A stretch of DNA of 64,000 nucleotides from Patescibacteria group bacterium (GTDB lineage: Bacteria; Patescibacteriota; Patescibacteriia; UBA9934). The notes under the pieces were generated by a model. It ran no database searches and was not told the DNA's origin. It saw only the letters and a list, made by a program, of their open reading frames with translations. A program made the position numbers and the translations under genes. The DNA lies in assembly GCA_038064675.1 (NCBI GenBank), contig JBBTSM010000006.1:7776-71775 (forward strand). Direction: 5' to 3'. Positions 3,492 to 59,501 of this stretch are shown in pieces; position 1 is the stretch's first letter, and each line of letters begins with the position of its first letter.

Positions 3492-4748
3492 TTACTCAGA
3501 AACTACAGGTGTCTCGACCGCAGCCTCAGCGACGGCTTCGACTGGCTCCGCAACAGCGTCCACATTTTCAACTGGAGCGATAACACCATCAGCCTGACGT
3601 TCCTGAATGTTTACCTTCCAACCAGTGAGTTTCGCCGCCAAACGGACGTTTTGACCACCGCGACCAATCGCGAGGGAAAGCTGATCGCTTGGAACAACGA
3701 CGATTGCTGCGTGTTCTGCCTCATCAAGATTTACCTCGAGCACCTTTGCCGGAGACAGCGCGTGCGTAATGAGTTCGCGTGGATTTTCGCTCCACTGGAC
3801 AATGTCGATCTTTTCGCCAGAGAGCTCTCCAGTAATCGTTTGGATACGGCTTCCGCGCTGCCCGATACATGCTCCGATTGGATCGATCCCCGCATCGGTA
3901 GATGCAACGGCGATCTTGGTACGCGCGCCAGCTTCGCGAGCAATCGCCTTAATGACGACGGTGCCCTCGGCGACTTCCGGAATTTCCACCATGAACAGCT
4001 TCTTTACCAACTCTTCACTGGTTCGGGAGAGCAAAATCTGCGCACCGCGCGAACCGAGCGACACTTCGCGAACGTAGAACTTCAAACGGTCTCCAGAGCG
4101 ATAGCGTTCCGTTGGCATCGCGTCTTCTGGCTTGATAATTCCAGCCGTGCGACCGATATCCACGAGAATAATACGGCCTTCACGACGCTGCACCGTTCCC
4201 ACAATTACATCGCCTTCGACACCCTTGAATTCGTTAAAGATGATTTCGCGCTCTGCTTCACGAAGCTTCTGGGTAATAACCTGCTTCGCGGTCATCGCTG
4301 CCATACGACCAAATTCCACAGCCTGTGGAAGCTCCGTACGCAACACGTCGCCAACCTTTGCACCCATCTTCATGAGCTGCGCGTCGGAAATCATGATGTC
4401 CGTTTTTGGATTGAACTTTGGTGCAATCTCGTCCACCGGTGTTTCTGTTGGTGGCATAAAGTCACCAAGCGCTTTCATTGCTTCGCGACGAGCCGATTCC
4501 TCAGCCTCAATCTTCTTCACCTCTTCCATTTCTTCTGCGGTAATATCTGCGACCACCGTTTTCACGTCGAAAATTCGAGCAAGGCCCGTTTCCGTATCGA
4601 ACTTCGCTTCAAGATTGTGATATTTGTCGCCAAAATCCTTACGATACGCCGCCGCCAATGCGGATTCGATCGTGGTCATGACACTTTCATACGAAAGGCC
4701 CTTCTCGTCACAAATCTGACGAATCGCTAACTCGATTGCACTTGCCAT
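3492..4748 (-). CDS. nusA: transcription termination/antitermination factor NusA
   Basis: 418 aa. N-terminal NusA domain, S1-like segment, KH repeats (GACIGQRGSRIQTITGELSGEKIDIV) and an acidic C-terminal tail. Confidence 0.9.
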   Translation of the reverse strand: MASAIELAIRQICDEKGLSYESVMTTIESALAAAYRKDFGDKYHNLEAKFDTETGLARIFDVKTVVADITAEEMEEVKKIEAEESARREAMKALGDFMPPTETPVDEIAPKFNPKTDIMISDAQLMKMGAKVGDVLRTELPQAVEFGRMAAMTAKQVITQKLREAEREIIFNEFKGVEGDVIVGTVQRREGRIILVDIGRTAGIIKPEDAMPTERYRSGDRLKFYVREVSLGSRGAQILLSRTSEELVKKLFMVEIPEVAEGTVVIKAIAREAGARTKIAVASTDAGIDPIGACIGQRGSRIQTITGELSGEKIDIVQWSENPRELITHALSPAKVLEVNLDEAEHAAIVVVPSDQLSLAIGRGGQNVRLAAKLTGWKVNIQERQADGVIAPVENVDAVAEPVEAVAEAAVETPVVSE

Positions 4749-5196: not shown

Positions 5197-6192
5197 TCAT
5201 TTCTCCACAACATCGCGAACCATCAGCGTTATCGGAATGACTTTCGTATCCGATAACCGCAACGGTTTCGCTCCGCCTTGATTTCGGAATCCGAATCGCT
5301 CGTAAAATCGAATCGCTTGATTATTGTACGATGCGACTTTTAATTGAATGGGCGTATCAGCATCGAGCCATTCTAATCCACGCCGAAAGACTTCGCCACC
5401 GATTCCTTTTCCAATATACGCAGGATCCAGATATAACGAATCAACCAAACCAAATTCTGCCGTCTTTCCTACCCTACAAAATCCAAGAGTTTTTTGAGCA
5501 TCCTCCAAAATGAATGTCCGAATATTTGCCAGCACCCCCTCATCACGCAATTCTCTCTGCCAAGAAGCCGTTTGCTGATCGACACTTTTTAAATATCTTT
5601 CAATATCCTCACGCGAAATCCCACCGACTTCGTTCGGATACGTCGCCAACCACGACTCATGCTGAATCCGCGCAATCTCCGCCGCATCAGCAACGGTCGC
5701 AATGCGGACTTCGGGTTTTTCCTTCGCGATATCGTGTTCTTTCGGCTCAACCACCCGATATGTTTGAACTTCATCGCGACCAACAACTTTTGCAGGAATT
5801 TCTGCGACGTGTTCGATGAACATCTTTGTTACACGATGGGCGCCGTCAATAATCGAGCCATCTTCAGTTACAAGAATCGGCTCGGAAAGGCTCACTCTCT
5901 GAGCACGGGCGATATGACTGCTCCACTCAGGCTCGCGAGACGCCATGATCGTGTAGTCTCCCTCACATGTTTCCGCAAGATCAATCAACTGTTTTGGCCC
6001 GATACTCCCACCATTATCAAGACTCCAACCGCGATCGTGAGATCGAAAGTCTAAGAAATCCGTCCGCGCCATAACGCGATCAGGAAATCTTCCCTTATCC
6101 GCGATCAATCGATCGACGTTAAGGATCAATCCGCCAACTTGTGCAGTCCGCGCCACTGTTCTCCTCTCAAAATTCTGCTCATTGCGATCCAT
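5197..6192 (-). CDS. two-domain protein: ParB/sulfiredoxin-like N-terminal domain fused to a C-terminal GNAT N-acetyltransferase
   Basis: N-terminal EPILVTEDGSIIDGAHRVTK matches the xDGxHR core of the ParB/Srx fold. C-terminal GFCRVGKTAEFGLVDSLYLDPAYIGKGIGGEVFRRGLEWL...NNQAIRFYERFGF is a clear GNAT fold. Confidence 0.55.
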   Translation of the reverse strand: MDRNEQNFERRTVARTAQVGGLILNVDRLIADKGRFPDRVMARTDFLDFRSHDRGWSLDNGGSIGPKQLIDLAETCEGDYTIMASREPEWSSHIARAQRVSLSEPILVTEDGSIIDGAHRVTKMFIEHVAEIPAKVVGRDEVQTYRVVEPKEHDIAKEKPEVRIATVADAAEIARIQHESWLATYPNEVGGISREDIERYLKSVDQQTASWQRELRDEGVLANIRTFILEDAQKTLGFCRVGKTAEFGLVDSLYLDPAYIGKGIGGEVFRRGLEWLDADTPIQLKVASYNNQAIRFYERFGFRNQGGAKPLRLSDTKVIPITLMVRDVVEK

Positions 6193-6203
6193 ACACGATC
6201 ATT

Positions 6204-6554
6204 CTACCCCACCCCAACGATATGGGTGATTCGTGGGGGCGATTGATCGTATTCAATCGCAATCACGTCGATGCGCCATTCGGATTGGGGGTGATCGGAC
6301 ATGAAATGTTCGGCGACGATGGCGATTTTTCGAAGCTTCGATCGGGTAACAGATTCTTCGGGATACCCGAATTCGTGATCGTTGCGCGCCTTCACCTCGA
6401 CCATGACAAATTCCTCCCCATCTTTTGCGATAATATCGATCTCGCCGAAACGGTTGCGATATTGCGTTTCAATAATCTGAAACTTCTTTGATTTCAAAAA
6501 CGCAGCGGCATCATGCTCAGCTGCGTTTCCAAAAATCCTCCTCTTATCCACCAT
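6204..6554 (-). CDS. YraN-family (UPF0102) endonuclease
   Basis: 116 aa. AAEHDAAAFLKSKKFQIIETQYRNRFGEIDIIAKDGEEFVMVEVKAR matches the YraN family. Confidence 0.75.
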   Translation of the reverse strand: MVDKRRIFGNAAEHDAAAFLKSKKFQIIETQYRNRFGEIDIIAKDGEEFVMVEVKARNDHEFGYPEESVTRSKLRKIAIVAEHFMSDHPQSEWRIDVIAIEYDQSPPRITHIVGVG

Positions 6555-6559
6555 AACGA

Positions 6560-6976
6560 TTACCGGGATCGTTTCGGCAAATATTTATTCACGTCAGCAC
6601 GTGACTGTTCGCGATGCTGCAACGCCGGAACTTCTGTTTTCACGTAGCGGACGATTGAAACAACGCCGGCGAGAACGCCAACGATCCAAATCAAAAACCA
6701 GAATCGGGAACCAAAGAATTGAATCTCTTCGAACGTGAGAAAGAACCAGACCAAGCCAACAAGACCAGAGAACGAACACAGTGTCGCGATCTTCTTGAGG
6801 ACGATCGCCTGATATCGATCGTACTTCCCATTGCGGATCATCATGCGGATTACTGATCCTGCGATGATTACGAGTGCGAAGAAGGCAAAGAAACCTGCCT
6901 CGAACGCTGCGGCCATACGAATCGGCGTAAGGTCGAACCAGAAGCTCAAATTCCAAAGTGGGGAGAGAAAATTCAT
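6560..6976 (-). CDS. integral membrane protein, hypothetical
   Basis: 138 aa with 3-4 predicted TM helices. Confidence 0.45.
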   Translation of the reverse strand: MNFLSPLWNLSFWFDLTPIRMAAAFEAGFFAFFALVIIAGSVIRMMIRNGKYDRYQAIVLKKIATLCSFSGLVGLVWFFLTFEEIQFFGSRFWFLIWIVGVLAGVVSIVRYVKTEVPALQHREQSRADVNKYLPKRSR

Positions 6977-7783: not shown

Positions 7784-7837
7784 ATAGCGCTATTTTATCA
7801 CAAACGAAAAAGAAGCCCGGTCAGGCTTCATTTTCGA

Positions 7838-7913
7838 TGGTGGACCGTATCGGGATCGAACCGATGACCTTCTGACTGCCAGCCAGACGCTCTACCAGCT
7901 GAGCTAACGGCCC
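7838..7913 (-). tRNA. tRNA-Ala (anticodon GGC), CCA encoded
   Basis: Manual cloverleaf fold. Acceptor GGGCCGU with the G3:U70 alanine identity pair, anticodon loop CUGGCAG, T-loop GGUUCGAUCC, 3' ACCA. Confidence 0.85.
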
Positions 7914-7920
7914 GAGAAAT

Positions 7921-8040
7921 GAAGAGAACGGGTTTATTTGGTCAAGCTTGGACGCACGGCGAGCAAATGTTTCGAGGCGTACTTCTTGGTACGTTGAGAA
8001 ACTTTGCGATGGCGTAAGTTCAAGATTGACCAAATAAACA
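7921..8040 (-). repeat. copy A of a ~100-nt conserved noncoding element (putative small RNA / repeat), between tRNA-Ala and tRNA-Val
   Basis: Its reverse complement aligns with 23343-23450 and 57453-57565 (core GCAAA.TT.CTCAACGTACCAAGAAGTACGCCTCG.AA...TTTGCTC..TGCG). Confidence 0.5.
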
Positions 8041-8048
8041 CGTTCTCC

Positions 8049-8125
8049 TGGTGGACGCCGGGGGATTCGAACCCTCGACCCTCTCGGTGTAAACGAGATG
8101 CTCTAACCAGCTGAGCTAGGCGTCC
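8049..8125 (-). tRNA. tRNA-Val (anticodon TAC), CCA encoded
   Basis: Manual fold. Acceptor GGACGCC/GGCGUCC, anticodon stem UCUCG/CGAGA, loop UUUACAC, T-arm GAGGG-UUCGAAU-CCCCC. Confidence 0.85.
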
Positions 8126-8212
8126 AAATACGTATCGCCGAGGAATAGTACCCGAAGGCTTGAATCTTTTCAATCTTGAGGTTATGCTTCTGCCCGTTCC
8201 TTTAGTGATCGC

Positions 8213-8298
8213 GCGCGGATGGTGAAATGGTAGACACGCCAGCTTGAGGGGCTGGTGGCCGCAAGGTCGTGGAGGTTCGAGTCCTCTTCCGCGCACCA
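8213..8298 (+). tRNA. tRNA-Leu (anticodon GAG), long variable arm, CCA encoded
   Basis: Acceptor GCGCGGA/UCCGCGC, anticodon stem CCAGC/GCUGG with loop UUGAGGG, long variable arm, T-arm GGAGG-UUCGAGU-CCUCU. Confidence 0.8.
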
Positions 8299-8363
8299 TC
8301 GATGAAGAAGTCCAGAACGGACTTCTTTTTCGTTTTCCCGTTCTTTGATACCCTTATGGCACT

Positions 8364-9074
8364 ATGGCAAACATGAAATTTGGGCTTGTGGGACGGATTT
8401 TGACGATTCTTGCTGCAATCGTAGTAATCGTTGCTGGAATGGCGTGGATCGGTAATGCCCAAGACCGCGCAAAAGAACCACAAAAGCTCGAGGTCGCGGC
8501 CAATGACAATGACTGGTTTGAGGGTGGAAAAGATGCTTCTGTCGTGCTCGTCGAATATAGCGACTTCCAGTGCCCGGCCTGCGGCGCGTACTTCCCTGTT
8601 ATGAAAGGCCTTCAAGAGGCGTACGGCGACAAGCTCAAGATTGTCTACCGCAACTATCCGCTTGCCTCTATTCATGCAAACGCCCAACTCGCAGCACAGG
8701 CCGCAGAAGCTGCTGGCATTCAAGAACAGTTCTTTCTGATGCACGATCTGCTCTTTGGCAACCAACAAACATGGAGTACAGAAACCGACCCAACGAACAC
8801 CTTCATCGGCTACGCAACATCTATTGGTCTTGATGTTGAAAAGTTCAAAACTGACCTTACAAGCGATGAAGCATTCGAGTCCGTAAAAGACGACATTCGA
8901 AGCGGAGACAAATCAAACGTGGATTCCACGCCAACGTTCTTCTTGAATGGTGTGCGGATTGAGAAGAATCCCCAGGGCCTTGAGCCATTCAAGGTACTCA
9001 TCGATGCAGCCCTCCCGCCAACTCCGGTCGCCGATCCGGCAACATCGAGCATTGAAGTGACGACCACGCCGTAA
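8364..9074 (+). CDS. DsbA-like thiol:disulfide oxidoreductase (thioredoxin fold, CPAC active site), N-terminal membrane anchor
   Basis: VVLVEYSDFQCPACGAYFPVMKGL... Thioredoxin-fold CxxC motif after an N-terminal TM helix. Confidence 0.8.
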   Translation: MANMKFGLVGRILTILAAIVVIVAGMAWIGNAQDRAKEPQKLEVAANDNDWFEGGKDASVVLVEYSDFQCPACGAYFPVMKGLQEAYGDKLKIVYRNYPLASIHANAQLAAQAAEAAGIQEQFFLMHDLLFGNQQTWSTETDPTNTFIGYATSIGLDVEKFKTDLTSDEAFESVKDDIRSGDKSNVDSTPTFFLNGVRIEKNPQGLEPFKVLIDAALPPTPVADPATSSIEVTTTP

Positions 9075-23221: not shown

Positions 23222-23227
23222 ACAAAA

Positions 23228-23253
23228 CACCGTCCGCAATGGACGGTGTTTTG
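23228..23253 (+). terminator. Rho-independent terminator
   Basis: caccgtcc-gcaat-ggacggtg hairpin followed by tttt, immediately after the 22388-23221 CDS. Confidence 0.6.
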
Positions 23254-23330
23254 TGGTGCGCGCACGTGGACTCGAACCACGGACCTTCACAATGTCAATG
23301 TGACGCTCTAACCAACTGAGCTATGCGCGC
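23254..23330 (-). tRNA. tRNA-Val (anticodon GAC), CCA encoded
   Basis: Acceptor GCGCGCA/UGCGCGC, anticodon stem UCACA/UGUGA with loop UUGACAU, T-arm CGUGG-UUCGAGU-CCACG. Confidence 0.85.
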
Positions 23331-23342
23331 TCGGAGTGCTGC

Positions 23343-23450
23343 TCCAGTTTGCCGATTTTCGGCTTGCTACGTCGCACATTCGCTCAACGTACCAAGAAGT
23401 ACGCCTCGCGAACTGTGCTCCTTGCGCACCGAAACTCGTCTAAACTGGAA
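23343..23450 (+). repeat. copy B of the ~100-nt conserved noncoding element
   Basis: tttgccgattttcggcttgc...gctcaacgtaccaagaagtacgcctcgcgaactgtgctccttgcgcaccgaaactcgtc. Confidence 0.5.
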
Positions 23451-23524
23451 CAGCCCTCATCGATTCACTCTCTGAATTCTCGACCGGAAGGATACGATTC
23501 ACAAGGGACAATGTCAATGTGCAA

Positions 23525-24090: not shown

Positions 24091-24167
24091 TGGTGGGTCT
24101 GCCTGGACTCGAACCAGGGACCGGCGAGGTATAAGCTCGCTGCTCTAACCAACTGAGCTACAGACCC
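24091..24167 (-). tRNA. tRNA-Ile (anticodon TAT; AUA decoder), CCA encoded
   Basis: Acceptor GGGUCUG/CAGACCC, anticodon stem GCGAG/CUCGC with loop CUUAUAC, T-arm CCUGG-UUCGAGU-CCAGG. Confidence 0.7.
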
Positions 24168-38501: not shown

Positions 38502-38608
38502 AACTACGAATTCTATCGTTCGCGCGCAACGCTTCTCTTGGTGAATGGAATAGCAGAGGACGAAAGCGCGCATCATCGGCGGCTCGGCATACGTGTTTTC
38601 CCAATCTG

Positions 38609-38692
38609 CGAGTGTAAAGACCTCTTTACACTTTTCCGATCAAAATGCCCAACGAAAGTGGAGAAATGTGTGTAAAGAGGTCTTTACACTCG
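38609..38692. repeat. perfect 23-nt inverted repeat pair (cgagtgtaaagacctctttacac / gtgtaaagaggtctttacactcg) separated by 37 nt
   Basis: Seen directly. Lies in the convergent intergenic region between the AT-rich HExxH gene and the DUF11-like gene. Each arm is itself nearly palindromic. Confidence 0.6.
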
Positions 38693-38784
38693 CAAAAGTC
38701 AAAAACCCATACCCCAAACCAAAAAATCACGCGCGCCATCTCATCCGTCCTTCCCCGCCCCATCCAAGATCAGATCACTTGCAT

Positions 38785-47770: not shown

Positions 47771-48735
47771 TACTTTGGAACGTTCACGGGAATGTCGAAC
47801 GTGCCAGCGGTGGCGTAGATGGAGCCGCCGAAGGCTTTTTTAAACTCGGTGATGCCGGCCCAGGGATGCTTTGCGGATGATCCTTCGGGCGCAATGCCCC
47901 AGAAGTCGTAGCGAATCATCCTGGAGTCGATCGCATCGTGGATAACGAAATCTTGGAGCACATGCGTCGCCTTGAGCTCGCGCATCTGATTGCCCGACGC
48001 ACCGTGAAGATACGTTCGCGTACCAAAAGAATCGATCGTCAGCGTTGCAGCAAGAGGAACCTCGTCTTTCGATGCAATCGCAAGCTTCGCGTGGCACGAT
48101 GGTTCGGCTCCAAGGGATTCGACCATGGATTTGTAGTACGCAATTTCGTGAATAGAAAATGCGTCGCGTTCTGCGGTTTGCTTCATCAAATCCACGAACT
48201 CATCGAATCGATCGATGCCAACGAATTCACAAATAACGCCCTTCTTTACGCCGAGCCTCGTGTTGTACCGAACTCGAGAGTTAAACTCACCGAATACCGC
48301 TTCGTAGCCCTTCGTCAAATCAAGAATCCGCGTGGTTTTTGGATGGGTTTCTTTGGTGGAAACCGATCGTGGAAGCTGCGTAATCGATTCCGTCCGAAGG
48401 TAATCCGTTCCGGCACCGAGCTCGGCGACCAATGCGTCGCGCATCGATTCCGGAGCCGCGTCGCCAATTGGGCCCTTCGGCACGAGCCAGTACGTAATTC
48501 CGAGCGGCGCCCTAAGTTTCATCGCCTGCGCGATACAGACCCCCTCCAACCACTCTCCTCGTCCGGCTCGGGACTCGTCGAGCGCCTTCGTAAGGGGGAG
48601 GGCTATCCTCCGAACCTCTCTTCCCTGACTCTTTTGAAACTCCCCCCACGCAAAACTCTGCAAAAATGCGCCGCTCGTTGGAGCAAAACGTGCGACCAAT
48701 GCATCCCATTCGCGCTGAGAGTATTCTGTCGTCAT
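47722..48735 (-). CDS. FemXAB-family aminoacyltransferase (tRNA-dependent peptidoglycan interpeptide-bridge formation)
   Basis: 337 aa whose block pattern matches FemX-like proteins: FLQSFAWGEF..., PKGPIGD, ILDLTKGYEAVFGEF..., YLHGASGNQ..., DFWGI. Confidence 0.55.
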   Translation of the reverse strand: MTTEYSQREWDALVARFAPTSGAFLQSFAWGEFQKSQGREVRRIALPLTKALDESRAGRGEWLEGVCIAQAMKLRAPLGITYWLVPKGPIGDAAPESMRDALVAELGAGTDYLRTESITQLPRSVSTKETHPKTTRILDLTKGYEAVFGEFNSRVRYNTRLGVKKGVICEFVGIDRFDEFVDLMKQTAERDAFSIHEIAYYKSMVESLGAEPSCHAKLAIASKDEVPLAATLTIDSFGTRTYLHGASGNQMRELKATHVLQDFVIHDAIDSRMIRYDFWGIAPEGSSAKHPWAGITEFKKAFGGSIYATAGTFDIPVNVPKYWMYRAARFVRGVVGR

Positions 48736-49286
48736 ACGTGGCGAGACAAAAGCTTTAACGCAGATTTTACGCGAGATTCTGTGGTTTCGCCAGTAATATC
48801 TTTTGCGATTCCAGACACATCAGCCTTTGAATACCCAAGGCTTTCGAGTGCGTCGGCAACATCCGATTGCACCGATCCTGACTCAGTCTTGTCCTCGAGG
48901 ACGAGCACACCTTTCAAATCGAGAATGATCTTTTGCGCCGTCTTCTTCCCTACTCCCGAAATCGCGTTAAAAAACGCCACGTCGTCTGTATGAATATGGC
49001 GAATGATGTCTTCCGCCGATCCTGAAGCCAAAATCTTCTGCGCAAGCTTCGGCCCAACACCAGACACGCCCATGAACTGCTCGAAGAGTGCTTGATCAGA
49101 TCGATCACCGAATCCGTAGAGATCGTGCTTGTCTTCGCGAATAATCTCGCTGATCCAGAATCGAATCCGATCGCCAACTTCGCATTTCTGTCGCGCAACA
49201 AAAACACGATACCCGATGCCGTTCACTTCCAAGAGAACGCCGTCGGATTCAAGCCCAGTAATTGTTCCGTCTAAATAGGCGATCAT
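48732..49286 (-). CDS. ruvA: Holliday junction branch-migration protein RuvA
   Basis: MIAYLDGTITGLESDGVLLEVNGIGYRVFV (domain I OB fold), HhH pairs (FEQFMGVSGVGPKLAQKIL; ISGVGKKTAQKIIL) and C-terminal domain III. Confidence 0.85.
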   Translation of the reverse strand: MIAYLDGTITGLESDGVLLEVNGIGYRVFVARQKCEVGDRIRFWISEIIREDKHDLYGFGDRSDQALFEQFMGVSGVGPKLAQKILASGSAEDIIRHIHTDDVAFFNAISGVGKKTAQKIILDLKGVLVLEDKTESGSVQSDVADALESLGYSKADVSGIAKDITGETTESRVKSALKLLSRHV

Positions 49287-49424
49287 ATCTTAATTTTATA
49301 GGACTTTCTCATTTGTGACTATTTTCGGTGCGGAGCGAGGAGAACTCGCGAAACGTACTTCGTGTGTACGTAGAGCGATTCGACGATGCGACAAGCCGAA
49401 AAGAGGCCAAATGAGGAAGTCCTA

Positions 49425-50594
49425 CTACACGGAAAGGCCTTCAGCCGCGAGGAGCTTCTGTGCACGGTGGGCGCATTCACAAATATGCCCGGCGTGATCG
49501 CCGAACACCTCGCCTTGCGACTCACCACGAGTCACTTCGTACACATGTTCCATAACAACGCCGCGCTCTGGGCCGATCGGCGTCTTTAAGAGTGCAAAGA
49601 TCACCTCGGGCGCGAGACCAGAATCGCCGAGGATTGATTTGATCCGAAGTTTTCGAGCGTGAGCCTGCCGAGCCTCACGAGCAGCGAATCGTTCTGACAT
49701 CGCCGTATGTTCGGCAAGCGCAAATGCTCGAAAGACTGGTAACGGAATAGGTCGAATAAGACCTATCCGACCAATATCGTGATCAAGCAACGCAATCGCG
49801 AGCAGCGCATCCAAATATTTCTCTACATTCAGTCCTGCTTTTCCTGCACGGGCCGCAAACACGCCGAACTCCGATTCGTTTCCAGGGGTTATAAAAAACT
49901 CTTCGACGTCGTCGTGACTCCAACAGAGCTCTGCAATGAACTTTTCGTACGCATGTTCAAGGTTGAAGCAACGAACAATCGCTGCGCGAGCCTCGGCATA
50001 CTGTGGCGCAATCACCGCGCGATCGGCGTCATCGTATGTTGCAACAATTCCAGATTGTGCAAACCACGATGCGCTGTCACCACCATGTGCCCGTCGCATT
50101 TTGTCGTAGCGATGAAGCTCGGATGACGTTGAATATTCATCTGCTCGGCGATTCAACCGAACAAATCCTTCTCTCTCCCCTACCGACCCGGATTCCGCGA
50201 CCAACAATAATCGATCCGGCTTCGCGATATTGTGCATGACGGCAAACGCACGAAACACGTCTGGAAAATCGCGAATCGCCTCCTCCGCATCGAGAAGCGC
50301 AAGGGAAAGCACAGGATCCGTCGCGATGTCCTCGCAGTCTCGCATCGATTCCCCGCTCGCGATTGCATCGATTGCGGCGAATGTTCGGATGATGTGATCC
50401 GCAACAAACGGCCCTTCGCAATGGCGCGGCGCGGTTTGCGGTGTGGTCGACAACACCGAAATCGATGGAATATCTTGTACGACCGCACCGAACCGATCTC
50501 GAGCATTGTGCAATCGAGGTTCCGTGAGCATTTCATCGATAAGAGTCTGGACCGATCGTGTGGATCGGTGCTCGGGTTTTGCAAGAAAATCCAT
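49425..50594 (-). CDS. hypothetical protein
   Basis: 389 aa, no confident domain call. Stop is 2 nt before the DHH gene start (operon-like). Confidence 0.4.
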   Translation of the reverse strand: MDFLAKPEHRSTRSVQTLIDEMLTEPRLHNARDRFGAVVQDIPSISVLSTTPQTAPRHCEGPFVADHIIRTFAAIDAIASGESMRDCEDIATDPVLSLALLDAEEAIRDFPDVFRAFAVMHNIAKPDRLLLVAESGSVGEREGFVRLNRRADEYSTSSELHRYDKMRRAHGGDSASWFAQSGIVATYDDADRAVIAPQYAEARAAIVRCFNLEHAYEKFIAELCWSHDDVEEFFITPGNESEFGVFAARAGKAGLNVEKYLDALLAIALLDHDIGRIGLIRPIPLPVFRAFALAEHTAMSERFAAREARQAHARKLRIKSILGDSGLAPEVIFALLKTPIGPERGVVMEHVYEVTRGESQGEVFGDHAGHICECAHRAQKLLAAEGLSV

Positions 50595-55937: not shown

Positions 55938-56621
55938 ATGATCGAGGTCCTCCCAGGAATTCTCGCCCAAGACGCCACAGAGCTTCGGGAAAAACTCTTC
56001 TTCCCCGGCTTTTGGCAGCCTGGAATGACTGCACACGTGGATATTCTCGACGGAACAATGTTTGGCGCGACGTGTTTTTGTGATGCGGCGGCGATCGCAG
56101 CGGTCCCCACCTCCCCCTCCGGTCTGCCGACCATCGAACTCCACTGCATGGTCCAAAATCCCATGTCGATCATCGAACAATGGAAATCGATTGTGCCCGA
56201 AACGATTCGCGCCATCGTTCATGCGGAAATCGAAAGACCGATCGCACCAATTCTCGATCAAATTCGCGAGCTCGAGCTTGAGACTGGCGTCGCGCTGTGT
56301 CCAAGAACATCGCCAGACATTCTTGGAGATCTTCCACAGCTTCCGGATCGTGTCCTCATTATGGGTGTGGAACCGGGAGCGTCGGGGCAAACATTTCTTA
56401 GCGAACCAATTCTTGCAAAAATCCGCAGAACACGATCGCTGTATCACTCACTTACCATTGCGGTCGATGGCGGGATGAATATGGAAACCGCACCATCCGC
56501 TGTTTCGGCTGGAGCGAATGCATTCATCGCTACACACGCAATTTGGTCTGAAAAACGGCCTCACGACGCATATCAACATCTCACACACAGCACTCCGCTT
56601 CCCGGCATTCACAAGATTTGA
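55938..56621 (+). CDS. rpe: ribulose-phosphate 3-epimerase (ORF opens at TTG 55917, overlapping rpiB)
   Basis: Block pattern HVDILDG, LHCMV, MGVEPGASGQTF, VDGG, AGANAFIATHAIW matches Rpe. Confidence 0.7.
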   Translation: MIEVLPGILAQDATELREKLFFPGFWQPGMTAHVDILDGTMFGATCFCDAAAIAAVPTSPSGLPTIELHCMVQNPMSIIEQWKSIVPETIRAIVHAEIERPIAPILDQIRELELETGVALCPRTSPDILGDLPQLPDRVLIMGVEPGASGQTFLSEPILAKIRRTRSLYHSLTIAVDGGMNMETAPSAVSAGANAFIATHAIWSEKRPHDAYQHLTHSTPLPGIHKI

Positions 56622-56646
56622 TATCATCATAGTAACAATATCTTCT

Positions 56647-57447
56647 ATGACTAAACGAGCATTTTCGTTCATTGGTTCTTTTGTCGCCATTGCTGCCATT
56701 ATTGGCGCGGTAGGTCTGTGGCACACAGATCGCGTTCAAGCATCGTCCACCGTTGTGTCGGGCGACTTGATCCGCGGCACATCGTTCTCCGCCGTGTATT
56801 ACATGGGCGCCGACGGTTTCCGCTATGTTTTTCCAAACGACAAGACGTATTTCACTTGGTATAGCAACTTCGACAGCGTGAAGTTCCTTTCCGACGCCGA
56901 TCTCGCAAATATCCAGATGGGCGGAAACGTCACCTACAAGCCAGGAAGCAAAATGATCAAGATTAACTCTGATCCAAAAACCTACGCGATCAGTGCAGGT
57001 GGCGTACTCCGCCACGTCACCAGTGAATCCGTTGCAACAACGCTCTACGGCAGCACATGGAACACAAAAATCGACGACGTACCAGATGGATTCTTCAGCA
57101 ACTACAGCATCGGTGCTGCGATTGAATCGTCGAGCGACTATTCATCAACAACCGAAACTGCAGCCGCAACCAGCATCAATACCGACAAAGATCTCACCGC
57201 TCCAGCAAACATCAGCATCACGAGCAACGGCTACAGCCCAATCGACGTCACGATCAGCGCCGGAGAAACCGTCACGTTCACAAACACGGACAGCGAAAAG
57301 CACACTGCAACGAGTGACGATCTCTCATGGGGCACCGGCACCATGGAAGCTGGTGGAACATTCACCCATCGTTTCTCTGAAGGAGGAACCTATACCTTCT
57401 TCGATAGCTACGACAGCGGCAACACCGGCGCGATCTACGTTCAATAA
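56647..57447 (+). CDS. secreted hypothetical protein with C-terminal beta-sandwich-like domain
   Basis: Signal/TM MTKRAFSFIGSFVAIAAIIGAVGLW. Start set at the internal ATG of ORF 56518-57447. Confidence 0.45.
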   Translation: MTKRAFSFIGSFVAIAAIIGAVGLWHTDRVQASSTVVSGDLIRGTSFSAVYYMGADGFRYVFPNDKTYFTWYSNFDSVKFLSDADLANIQMGGNVTYKPGSKMIKINSDPKTYAISAGGVLRHVTSESVATTLYGSTWNTKIDDVPDGFFSNYSIGAAIESSSDYSSTTETAAATSINTDKDLTAPANISITSNGYSPIDVTISAGETVTFTNTDSEKHTATSDDLSWGTGTMEAGGTFTHRFSEGGTYTFFDSYDSGNTGAIYVQ

Positions 57448-57452
57448 AGAAG

Positions 57453-57565
57453 CTTTCTCATTTGGCCGATTTTGGGCTTGCCTCATGGCAAACTTGCTCA
57501 ACGTACCCATGAAGTACGCCTCACAAGATTTGCTCGATGCGCACCCAAACTCGTCACAAATGAAA
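57453..57565 (+). repeat. copy C of the ~100-nt conserved noncoding element, in the leader of the transketolase N-subunit gene
   Basis: tttggccgattttgggcttgc...gctcaacgtacccatgaagtacgcctcacaagatttgctcgatgcgcacccaaactcgtc. Confidence 0.5.
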
Positions 57566-57639
57566 AACCTTCTGTCAGATCGGTTCAAAAATCACTCGCA
57601 ACACTGCGAGTGATTTTTGTTTCTTGATATACTTCGGCT

Positions 57640-58524
57640 ATGCCACAACGTCGACACACCATTTCCGCCATTACCGATGGCGACGTCCGCAAACTCGAGC
57701 TCATCGCGAATAGCATCCGTGAGGATATTTTAAAGATGCTTCTTACTGCGGGCAGCGGCCATAGTGCCGGACCTCTTGGAATGGCAGATATCTTCACCGC
57801 CCTCTACTTTCACATTCTCCATCACAACCCGAAGCGGCCAACATGGGACGAGCGCGATCGGTTATTTCTGAGCAACGGTCATATTGTCCCTGTTCGCTAC
57901 GCCACCATGGCACACGCTGGCTACTTCCCCATCGACGGACTCAAAACTCTACGAAAGTTCGGTTCTCGCCTTCAAGGACATCCGGAAATGCGATTTCTCC
58001 CGGGGCTCGAAAACACGTCCGGCCCGCTCGGTGATGGATCGTCGCAAGCTGTTGGCGCCGCATACGTCGCAAAAATGGATGGATCACCATGGCACACGTA
58101 TTGCGTCATGAGCGACGGCGAACTGGAATGTGGAATTACGTGGGAAGCTGCGCTCTTCGCCGCGAAAAATCAGCTGAACAATCTCACGTGGATCATCGAC
58201 CGCAACAACATCCAAATCGACGGCTATACAGAAGATATCATGCCGCTTGAACCACTCCACGATAAATTTACCGCATTCGGCTGGAATGTTCTGGAGATTG
58301 ATGGCCACAATATTCGCGACATCATCAATGCCTGCGACCGTGGAGAAAGTACCTGGGAGGCACCAACGGTCATTATCGCCCATACCATTCCCGGCAAAGG
58401 CGTCAGTTTCATGGAATGCGAGCCGAGTTGGCACGGAAAGCCACCGAAAGACCGAAAAGAACTTGGTGCAGCACTCAAGGAATTACGAACCTTAGGAGGA
58501 AAAATATCTAACGAAAGTCTATGA
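57640..58524 (+). CDS. transketolase, N-terminal (TPP-binding) subunit of a split transketolase
   Basis: MLLTAGSGHSAGPLGMADIFTALYFHILHHNP...GHPE... matches transketolase N-terminal-section signatures. Confidence 0.85.
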   Translation: MPQRRHTISAITDGDVRKLELIANSIREDILKMLLTAGSGHSAGPLGMADIFTALYFHILHHNPKRPTWDERDRLFLSNGHIVPVRYATMAHAGYFPIDGLKTLRKFGSRLQGHPEMRFLPGLENTSGPLGDGSSQAVGAAYVAKMDGSPWHTYCVMSDGELECGITWEAALFAAKNQLNNLTWIIDRNNIQIDGYTEDIMPLEPLHDKFTAFGWNVLEIDGHNIRDIINACDRGESTWEAPTVIIAHTIPGKGVSFMECEPSWHGKPPKDRKELGAALKELRTLGGKISNESL

Positions 58525-59501
58525 CCCGTACCCCATCGTTCCTTGCACGCATCGCTCGACTCATGCTCATTACCGGCCTAGTGCTCGTCGCGCTCATTTT
58601 GCTCGCAACATATGCAAGCATGCCACGACCGTCTTCCATGATGAGCTGGTGGGATAAAACCGAACGGAACGCTGTCACAAGCTCGTCGTCCGGGAGCGTC
58701 AGTGCATCGGATTCCTTCGGCGGAGGAATGATGGGATACGCCATCGCGCCAGAAACCGCACCGGCGCCATCAGCGACTACAACAACGGACGTTTCAACAA
58801 CGACAACCGTGGATCAGCGCGTCATTAAAACAGGATCGATCGACATGACATCGAACGACGTGCCATCAACGGTAAGCCTCGTTTCGAACCTCGCAACAAT
58901 ACGGGGTGGCTTTGTTCAAACATCCTCAACGAGCGACGATGAACAAGGAAAAACCTCGGCATACATTGTTCTTCGAGTTCCTTCCGGCGATTTTGATGCA
59001 ACGATGACCGACATTAAAGGGTTTGGCGTGCATGTAAATAACGAATCGATTTCCGGTGAAGACGTCACAGAACAGTTCACCGACGTTTCCGCTCGGCTCG
59101 CCGCTGCGAAGGCGCAGGAAGAGCAATATCTCATCATTCTCAAGAGTGCCACCACCGTTGGCGAAGTTCTCGCTGTTCAAGAACATCTTGCGATTGTTCG
59201 TGCAGACATCGAATCACTTCAGGGCCAAGTCAACTACCTCACCAACCGCACCGATCTCGCAACGATCAGCATCGTGGTTTCTGAAGAGCCAACCGCAGAG
59301 ACCGCGAGCGACAGCAAATTCGATCCTGCGCGCGATGCAAACTCTGCAGTCGCTCTCGTTATTACCCTTGGTCAGCATGCACTTTCCGTGCTGATCTGGG
59401 CGGCTATCATCGGTACCGCCGTCGGCATTCCTGTTGGTCTTGTTGCATTCATCTACTGGCTCATCACTCGTCGTCGAGATGTTTCAAAGCGCAGAAAGTA
59501 A
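58521..59501 (+). CDS. DUF4349-like membrane-anchored protein with coiled coil
   Basis: N-terminal TM, central coiled coil (RLAAAKAQEEQYLIILKSATTVGEVLAVQEHLAIVRADIESLQGQVNYL), C-terminal TM. 4-nt overlap with the transketolase N-terminal gene. Confidence 0.5.
   Translation: MTRTPSFLARIARLMLITGLVLVALILLATYASMPRPSSMMSWWDKTERNAVTSSSSGSVSASDSFGGGMMGYAIAPETAPAPSATTTTDVSTTTTVDQRVIKTGSIDMTSNDVPSTVSLVSNLATIRGGFVQTSSTSDDEQGKTSAYIVLRVPSGDFDATMTDIKGFGVHVNNESISGEDVTEQFTDVSARLAAAKAQEEQYLIILKSATTVGEVLAVQEHLAIVRADIESLQGQVNYLTNRTDLATISIVVSEEPTAETASDSKFDPARDANSAVALVITLGQHALSVLIWAAIIGTAVGIPVGLVAFIYWLITRRRDVSKRRK

Follow-up and report, generated by a model that had tools for sequence, protein, structure and literature searches.

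REP and REPIN elements are mostly found downstream of genes, are co-transcribed, persist for long periods, and are inherited vertically (PMC3337134; PMC3733652). Transcript cleavage is triggered by ERIC in a single orientation, via a putative RNase E site, while Correia elements are targeted by RNase III (PMC3049150). For the hairpin repeats of Neurospora, sponge, and fungal mitochondria, the roles discussed are signaling in RNA processing, serving as sites of recombination, and being mobile DNA (PMC2800124, citing Yin et al. 1981). Here, we describe a family of hairpin repeats in a 64,000-nucleotide (nt) stretch of contig JBBTSM010000006.1 from a Patescibacteria group bacterium; this whole stretch is referred to below as the window. 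The window carried four copies of an imperfect hairpin of about 124 nt, each placed with the same end against a gene. We tentatively read the element, at somewhat less than even probability, as an old, selected boundary hairpin of the REPIN/ERIC kind, which would be co-transcribed with its neighbors as a leader or trailer and whose strand specificity suggests that it is recognized in single-stranded form.

A sequence-only reading of the window had pointed out three copies of an element of about 100 nt. The three regions were homologous, as proposed, with a mean column identity of 76% across the aligned stretch, but a tip-motif search and a covariance model identified four copies, each about 124 nt long (Table 1). 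When all positions in the window were scored, the model returned exactly four sites, with scores of 112 to 134 bits and E-values of about 1e-26 to 1e-31, and the opposite strand of each site scored only 31 to 44 bits. No matches to the core pattern were expected in shuffled sequences, so chance was excluded. We refer to the better-scoring and better-folding strand as S and to its complement as anti-S. S was the reverse complement of the orientation chosen in the sequence-only reading, which had picked the less structured strand; pairing was preserved on the opposite one. The better strands of the copies had folding z-scores of -5.9 to -10.2. For copies 1, 2, and 3, the S folding energies were -66.1, -66.9, and -51.4 kcal/mol, respectively, compared to -50.4, -49.8, and -36.7 kcal/mol for the strand that had been read.

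An exact-pattern scan of one genome per species yielded 60 loci from public genomes that carry the element (loci are given L-numbers as labels), and the covariance model found about 76 high-scoring copies in the 0.53 Mb around them. Each copy formed an imperfect hairpin, or palindrome, whose 5' and 3' ends paired. In an alignment of 57 copies, the consensus hairpin had 46 pairs, and 95.8% of the cells at these pairs were paired. The compensatory changes that the earlier reader had proposed to look for with a covariance model were abundant, with both-sided changes at 28 of the 46 pairs (359 cells). None of 500 shuffles scored as high, and shifted pairings were only 29 to 45% paired. In the outer stem the sequence was nearly free, and complementarity was always kept.

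Other parts of the hairpin were conserved in sequence. The CGTAC-loop-GTACG hairpin noted previously was present, but it turned out to be the tip of a much longer structure: CGUAC, a loop beginning with UUC, and GUACG. Near the tip was a conserved tandem G.A / A.G beside two G.U pairs. Purine-rich internal loops were conserved, as were a number of purine-purine mismatches; at columns 19/107, the alignment showed a swap between G.A and A.G. The base of the stem, (A)GRAC...GUYC(U), was conserved as well. Weaker variants of the element shared the tip and differed in the arms or the sub-apical region. The invariance of the tip was partly circular because the public scans used an exact pattern; nonetheless, the model recovered copies with an altered tip or a different sub-apical region (e.g., L035:6197-6322 and L056:3356-3479).

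These patterns bear on whether the element encodes a small peptide or is left over from the duplication of a protein-coding gene. Although spurious open reading frames (ORFs) cross the copies, the substitutions were compensatory between the arms and showed no codon pattern, the loops varied in length by 1 to 2 nt, copies occurred in both orientations, and copies abutted stop codons. Thus, a coding origin was effectively refuted, and the element was noncoding and structured, as the sequence-only reading had favored.

The placement of the copies relative to genes followed a polarity rule. We counted a gene boundary when a tRNA terminus, or the stop codon closing an ORF of 80 amino acids (aa) or more, lay within 5 nt. 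By this measure, a boundary was found at the S 3' end of 41 of the 76 copies and at the S 5' end of only 4. Most of the remaining S 3' ends were located 0 to 25 nt before start codons, which were less exact than the tRNA ends and stop codons because neighboring protein genes were called with a longest-ORF heuristic. The proteins that follow these starts we take to be L11, S2, S7, and YbaB, judging from their N-terminal sequences only. A tRNA gene was abutted by 28 of 86 family members, in keeping with the earlier suggestion of a tRNA-associated repeat. In the window, the S 3' end touched a gene boundary in all four copies. It follows from this polarity that the transcript of the neighboring gene has S when the element is upstream of the gene (leader-type copies) and anti-S when it is downstream (trailer-type copies).

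Some genes were bracketed by copies in both orientations, as was the case for tRNA-Ala (L051), tRNA-Tyr (L008 and L033), and rpsG-fusA (L038). The genes bracketed by copies were housekeeping genes (e.g., rpsG-fusA, rplJ, der, and rpsO). The polarity also extended beyond Patescibacteria: it was kept at five Syntrophaceae-like RNase P RNA loci, and two Myxococcota copies were located 2 nt after stop codons, while a third overlapped the end of the neighboring ORF. Flank logos revealed no conserved promoter, terminator, or other motif at a fixed distance from the copies. Two functions that a hairpin in such a position might have were rejected. The hairpin was not itself an intrinsic terminator, since T was not enriched after either end and separate terminators followed copies 1 and 3. 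An rRNA-like processing stalk, in which an upstream S would pair with a downstream anti-S across a gene, was rejected since the five bracketing pairs were no more alike than random pairs (percentiles 0 to 74).

One strand was preferred throughout. S folded better than anti-S in 76 of 76 copies, with a mean gain of 10 to 16 kcal/mol, and this advantage held whether S or anti-S was transcribed. At pairs with a Watson-Crick majority, G.U on S outnumbered A.C by 92 to 23. The split was 25:5 among leader-type and 28:9 among trailer-type copies, and the two classes did not differ; the conserved G.U and G.A positions were kept in both classes alike. Watson-Crick pairs look the same in the hairpins of S and anti-S, which differ only at non-canonical pairs and in loops; the asymmetry therefore means that the non-canonical features of S were specifically preserved. 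Selection on whichever strand happens to be transcribed was rejected as the cause, since neither the G.U:A.C ratio nor the difference in folding energy depended on whether a copy was of the leader or the trailer type.

We considered whether the element might instead act as a DNA structural boundary, that is, as a cruciform or a protein site of about 120 bp that manages supercoiling or collisions near heavily transcribed genes, comparable to gyrase-binding BIMEs. Many copies adjoined tRNA, RNase P RNA, ribosomal-protein, and EF-G genes, the length of about 124 bp would suit such a site, and the orientation was mirrored on the two sides of a gene. The strand asymmetry argued otherwise, as a cruciform cannot favor G.T on one strand over the other. 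Moreover, binding to double-stranded DNA would not demand covariation at the variable positions of the arms, and several copies in the window flanked ordinary genes. We regarded this explanation as very unlikely.

Comparisons between genomes suggested that the copies were old. Within a Patescibacteria genome, paralogous copies had a mean identity of 72% and a maximum of 91%. Orthologous copies, on the other hand, were 85 to 99% identical, and in most comparisons they were far more alike than their mostly coding 300-nt flanks (64 to 88%). For example, copy 4, which starts at position 49300 of the window, was 99.2% identical to its orthologue in L005, compared to 85% for the 5' flank and 79% for the 3' flank. 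The corresponding values were 98.4%, 83%, and 82% for L034 and L052; 98.4%, 64%, and 81% for L001 and L003; and 93.5%, 70%, and 69% for L006 and L007. The differences between orthologues comprised 50 double compensatory changes, 28 single changes of the G.U type, 12 of the A.C type, and about 7 that broke a pair, in a count that included some pairs matched only through similar tRNA flanks. The conservation in place and the compensatory changes indicated that the copies were old and under purifying selection, including copy 4, which is of the trailer type.

The gene context of the four window copies is shown in Table 1. Copy 1 filled the spacer between the tRNA-Val(tac) and tRNA-Ala(ggc) genes on the minus strand, with the S 3' end 1 nt from the CCA end of tRNA-Val(tac), and the predicted transcript carried anti-S. 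The S 3' end of copy 2 was 3 nt upstream of the 5' end of tRNA-Val(gac). Given the promoter-like site upstream of copy 2, the primary transcript of tRNA-Val(gac) should begin with S. The statement that two copies adjoin tRNA genes therefore applied to copies 1 and 2. The A-run/T-run hairpin found after tRNA-Val(gac) was also present in L056. Copy 4 was located between a 389-aa gene and ruvA in a minus-strand operon; its S 3' end abutted the stop codon of the former, and 13 nt separated its S 5' end from the start of the latter. On the minus strand, positions 49293-49321 contained a weak match to a promoter, TAGTCA-17-TAAAAT, with its first hexamer inside copy 4 and its second in the flank before ruvA; copy 4 could in principle contribute an outward promoter.

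Table 1. Copies of the hairpin repeat in the window and the features next to them
Feature	Coordinates	Strand	Score or basis
Copy 1 of hairpin repeat	7925..8047	S on +	116 bits on +, 42 bits on -
tRNA-Val(tac), 3' end abuts copy 1	8049..8125	-	ARAGORN, Rfam
tRNA-Ala(ggc), 11 nt downstream of copy 1, same operon	7838..7913	-	ARAGORN, Rfam
Promoter-like site TTGAAA-17-TACTAT for the tRNA-Val/copy 1/tRNA-Ala unit	8145..8173	-	Consensus scan only
Terminator-like hairpin and T-run closing the tRNA-Val/copy 1/tRNA-Ala unit	7812..7829	-	
Copy 2 of hairpin repeat	23334..23457	S on -	134 bits
tRNA-Val(gac), directly downstream of copy 2	23254..23330	-	ARAGORN, Rfam
Promoter-like site TTGACA-17-TATCCT, preceding copy 2 by about 25 nt	23489..23517	-	Consensus scan, 10/12 matches
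Hairpin with A-run and T-run after tRNA-Val(gac), bidirectional terminator-like	23222..23250		Read in the sequence; not listed by the scan tool
Copy 3 of hairpin repeat	57448..57572	S on -	123 bits
Cupredoxin-domain gene, stop abuts copy 3	56518..57447	+	ORF list, Pfam Cupredoxin_1
Intrinsic terminator between copy 3 (13 nt away) and the transketolase start (57640)	57586..57619	+	15-pair stem and T-run
Copy 4 of hairpin repeat, more diverged	49300..49424	S on +	112 bits
389-aa gene, no Pfam match, stop abuts copy 4	49425..50594	-	ORF list, Pfam
ruvA, following copy 4 by 13 nt on the mRNA strand	48732..49286	-	Pfam RuvA_N, HHH_5, RuvA_C

The context of copy 3 bears on the proposal that the element is a cis-regulatory leader, such as a riboswitch or attenuator, of a downstream gene. 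The sequence-only reading had placed copy 3 in the 5' leader of the transketolase gene. The S 3' end of this copy, however, abutted the TAA stop codon (57445-57447) of the cupredoxin-domain gene, and an intrinsic terminator preceded the transketolase start; thus, copy 3 was the trailer of the cupredoxin-domain gene rather than the transketolase leader. The order of gene, element, and terminator recurred at other loci. Some copies did lie 0 to 25 nt upstream of ribosomal-protein starts, and copy 2 was in a tRNA leader, as a regulatory leader might be. On the other hand, about half of the assignable copies followed genes, the neighboring genes were mutually unrelated across the family, and the hairpin was not followed by a U-tract. 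A regulatory role of this type, at transketolase or elsewhere, was extremely improbable. In a separate observation, the transketolase region (57640-59501) appeared to be split: a 294-aa ORF contained only the N-terminal thiamine-diphosphate domain (Pfam), and a 326-aa ORF at 58521..59501 followed and overlapped it.

The same contexts were informative about a discrete small-RNA gene, another of the early suggestions. Under this explanation, the copies would be independently transcribed, trans-acting S-strand RNAs of about 125 nt. A rod with conserved loops and non-canonical pairs is typical of protein-binding RNAs, the S strand was the specific one, and RNase P cleavage at an adjacent tRNA could release S from leaders. 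But a promoter or terminator at a fixed distance was lacking, promoters were predicted only where the neighboring gene needs them, and the orientation relative to transcription was mixed. S was antisense to both neighbors in copies 1, 3, and 4, and copy 3 had a terminator 13 nt upstream on its own strand. S-strand RNA was therefore unlikely at these three copies, and the explanation as a whole was highly improbable.

We also found signs of turnover, of a kind typical of repeats, around the copies. In a tRNA-Gly/tRNA-Thr spacer, the element was against tRNA-Thr in one genome and was inverted and against tRNA-Gly in another. A tRNA-Leu/tRNA-Val spacer contained one copy in two genomes and two copies in a third, and a truncated copy was found beside an intact one in L051. 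When positions 7800-8370 of the window were compared to the closest relative (L046, positions 600-1100), a divergent tRNA-Val(tac)/tRNA-Leu(gag) pair was inverted, its breakpoints falling no more than about 10 nt from the 3' end of either tRNA, and the window had an extra module consisting of copy 1 and tRNA-Ala(ggc).

We also considered a purely DNA-level role, in which S, as folded single-stranded DNA, would be the substrate of a single-strand-specific recombinase or transposase that joins or exchanges DNA at the S 3' end, and the RNA hairpin would be a by-product. Integron attC sites, REP/RAYT, and the IS200/IS605 family are examples of such substrates and systems. Several observations were consistent with this idea. 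The asymmetry in favor of S was independent of the direction of neighboring transcription, the strand might be identified by its conserved mismatches, and conservation extended to the base of the stem. The polarity had the geometry of a cassette gene followed by an attC bottom strand, the rearrangements were exactly at tRNA ends, and the family crossed phyla. In addition, S was on the C-rich strand in 47 copies and on the other strand in 29 (P = 0.05), which amounted to a weak replication-strand bias.

Other observations did not fit a DNA-level role. No transposase or recombinase (HUH, tyrosine, or other) was found beside or between copies in the approximately 0.5 Mb around them, where the genes were housekeeping genes only. 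No clear target-site duplication was seen, and there was no attC R-box or REP tag. The dinucleotide TA was frequent outside GRAC...GUYC, yet it belonged to the palindrome and was absent at tRNA junctions. Recent transposition of the kind seen with miniature inverted-repeat transposable elements (MITEs) was not indicated either: in the sampled loci, near-identical copies were found only in a Myxococcota metagenome-assembled genome (MAG) and not in Patescibacteria, and no related autonomous element was seen beside or between copies. Finally, strong conservation in place would not be expected of inactive recombination scars, and the copies appeared to lie within transcription units. We judged a role confined to DNA unlikely.

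The combined reading that we favor attempts to accommodate both sets of observations. Gene order and consensus scans suggested that the copies lie inside the transcription unit of the gene they touch, either following its promoter and preceding the gene itself, or past the gene end and ahead of a terminator or another gene. If so, the transcript of the neighboring gene would carry the copy as a leader or trailer hairpin. A rod-like hairpin of this kind might serve as an RNA end module that blocks exonucleases and/or lets in an RNase specific for double strands, and might fix or protect the adjacent RNA end; the copies would then be maintained by selection on the host for this function. The strand asymmetry, together with the gene-facing S 3' end, suggested deposition or recognition as a single strand, as for REP/REPIN hairpins and attC. 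The copies would thus have been laid down, and perhaps would still be recognized, as one particular single strand, and duplication would be rare.

Several points weighed against this combined reading. The transcript of the neighboring gene carried anti-S in 23 of 47 assignable copies, and in these the S-type bases were kept as strictly, even though anti-S has A.C and U.C mismatches where S has the conserved G.U and G.A. Because trailer-type copies preserved the non-canonical pairs of S, a function in RNA only does not explain the data. In the window, three of the six tRNA genes had no copy, and close relatives differed in which copies were present, so no single copy looked indispensable. In the Patescibacteria loci around the copies, there was neither a transposase nor a sign of a recent burst, and no target-site duplication was found in comparisons of empty and filled sites that were diverged or rearranged. 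Co-transcription was itself predicted from gene order and consensus scans, and any mechanism for the polarity rule would be conjectural. On the other side, the location of the copies within putative transcription units, together with their strong conservation, means that a function in DNA only does not explain the data either. It is because neither type of function accounts for everything that we placed the combined reading at tentative strength.

A further possibility is that the element is recognized by a single-strand-specific system that is conserved across phyla and has so far escaped description, either a machinery for recombination or transposition or one for RNA-end maturation. A protein would grasp the conserved tip hairpin by its tandem G.A and G.U pairs and act at the S 3' end. 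If the machinery recombined or transposed DNA, it would target the ends of stable-RNA and protein genes, whereas a maturation system would be specific to these reduced bacteria. We considered such a system rather unlikely.

The family was found mainly in one lineage. The loci from the pattern scan were mostly from MAGs of Candidatus Uhrbacteria (Patescibacteria) from lakes, and the sampled loci of one MAG contained at least 27 copies. The organism of the window was present in the 0.1-micrometre filter fraction of Hainich groundwater, with the same ruvA and an identical copy 4; an identical copy 4 was also present in Logan contigs. A number of loci (L001, L003, L005, L006, L019, L031, L042, L046, L047, L052, and L057) were from MAGs labeled "uncultured Gammaproteobacteria" (CAYROW, CAYMYA, CAYHKX, and CAZVBP). 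At least the loci from CAYROW were near-identical and syntenic to the window (L005 and L046) and to a Candidatus Uhrbacteria MAG (L052 compared to L034). Given this shared sequence and synteny, the taxonomic label of these MAGs is probably wrong.

A few loci from the pattern scan were from one Myxococcota MAG, one Syntrophaceae MAG, and one Thermodesulfobacteriota MAG. In the Syntrophaceae-like loci L040, L062, and L064 (also L063 and L065), a variant of the element was a conserved feature, lying in the anti-S orientation roughly 10 nt beyond the RNase P RNA gene's 3' end, and was apparently single-copy. The gene after this variant is presumably SpoIID-like, judging from its sequence. In the Myxococcota MAG (L015, L020, and L021), near-identical copies were arranged head to tail about 12 to 20 nt apart, and these arrays adjoined a second variant with a different tip, GGUAC-GUAAA-GGUACC.

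No database family matched the element. At the gathering threshold, Rfam 15 returned only six tRNAs in the window; with copy 2 at E-values up to 10, it returned only noise (sucC at 11 bits and DUF805b at 9 bits). On 18 further loci, Rfam returned tRNAs and one group I intron and nothing for the element. The Rfam search put forward with the initial prediction thus gave no family. A tRNA or tmRNA identity was rejected because ARAGORN and Rfam listed only the six true tRNAs in the window. There was no pattern or blastn match in viral contigs or in phage and plasmid collections, and no blastn match in 5,426 Escherichia coli genomes; an origin from phages, plasmids, or E. coli was rejected on these grounds, as was membership in ERIC, BIME, or other E. 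coli repeat families. A literature search by topic and by sequence string found no description of the element, and the repeat family seemingly is undescribed in databases and the searchable literature.

Other features were observed in the window and in the loci examined. In the window, a perfect 20-nt palindrome, GTGTAAAGAGGTCTTTACAC, occurred twice about 60 nt apart at 38581-38720, where the pair made a larger inverted repeat. This inverted repeat matched the covariance model weakly; it was rejected as a family member because it was an unrelated pair of 20-nt palindromes, and it could be an operator or terminator pair. A tRNA-Ile(tat) gene, with the anticodon UAU, was located at 24091-24167 on the minus strand and had its own promoter-like site (24222 to 24194). 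This anticodon is uncommon for tRNA-Ile in bacteria. In the relative L056, a variant hairpin was located between the promoter and the tRNA-Ile(tat) gene, while the window had none there.

Among the public loci, L035 contained a 169-nt region (6491-6659, minus strand) between an upstream S and a downstream anti-S with a terminator. The region had a predicted multi-branched fold with paired ends (z = -4.6) and no Rfam match; possibly, it is a gene for a stable RNA that has gone unannotated in Patescibacteria. In L051, two perfect parS-like sites, TGTTTCACGTGAAACA (at about 3969-3984 and 4421-4436), each within a 27-nt direct repeat, flanked the block of S, tRNA-Ala, and anti-S. The group I intron (RF00028, 55.9 bits) was located at 5928-6148 on the minus strand of L016, an Uhrbacteria contig.

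Patescibacteria genomes are about 1 Mb and have almost no spare DNA. That dozens of 124-nt hairpins are better conserved than neighboring protein genes in genomes of this size implies an important function. The lineage appears to keep these hairpins for a function that is apparently undescribed. The strongly covarying model could enter RNA or repeat databases and improve the annotation of Patescibacteria genomes, and the Syntrophaceae-like RNase P RNA copy and the Myxococcota arrays indicate that the motif is not confined to one phylum. The strand rule and the rule of the gene-facing end make it directly testable whether the element is selfish DNA, an RNA signal, or both.

Of the systems introduced above, REP and REPIN elements are like the element in being extragenic and multi-copy. 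However, the ends of REPINs (the REPs) are conserved and the middle is variable, whereas here the tip and internal loops were conserved and the outer stem was variable. The element also had no GTAG or CGTC tag, no sequence similarity to REP/REPIN, and a strict gene-facing polarity. As for the RAYT transposases that mobilize REP/REPIN elements, none was found in the approximately 0.5 Mb around the copies, where housekeeping genes were found.

ERIC and Correia/NEMIS are, like the element, imperfect palindromes of about 100 to 155 bp in transcribed intergenic DNA that fold as RNA (PMC3049150). The element differed from both in having no sequence similarity to them, no clear TA duplication, and a much deeper covariation, as well as in abutting tRNA and RNase P RNA genes and in its occurrence in Patescibacteria, Myxococcota, and Desulfobacterota-type organisms. 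An orientation bias of ERIC copies next to stop codons was reportedly observed by De Gregorio and colleagues in 2005.

The attC sites of integrons share several features with the element: structure is conserved over sequence, one strand folds into the recognized form, the stem base is conserved, and the site follows immediately on the stop codon of its neighboring gene, to which the functional strand is antisense. In contrast to attC, the element had no RYYYAAC/GTTRRRY boxes, was not in cassette arrays by an integrase, and had a conserved rather than a variable tip. Its stem base, GRAC/GUYC, had no unpaired central spacer, and its copies were dispersed, also upstream of genes, and by core genes. 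The folding of one strand, which attC and the element have in common, is best regarded as a resemblance in the way they would work rather than as membership.

Organellar hairpins are also repeated hairpins in compact genomes, often by tRNA genes, and GC-rich palindromes flank tRNA genes in Neurospora mitochondria. They differ from the element in being short (about 17 to 40 nt), GC-rich, and organellar, and we know of no comparable strand asymmetry or polarity rule reported for them. The precursor 4.5S (SRP) RNA and 6S RNA are similar to the element in size and in having a rod shape with internal loops; they differ in that each is encoded once, is transcribed from a promoter of its own, and has a defined function, and their Rfam models did not match the element. 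Thus, while the element carried none of the sequence features that define REP/REPIN, ERIC, Correia, or the tRNA-flanking hairpins of organelles, it is kin to them in kind.

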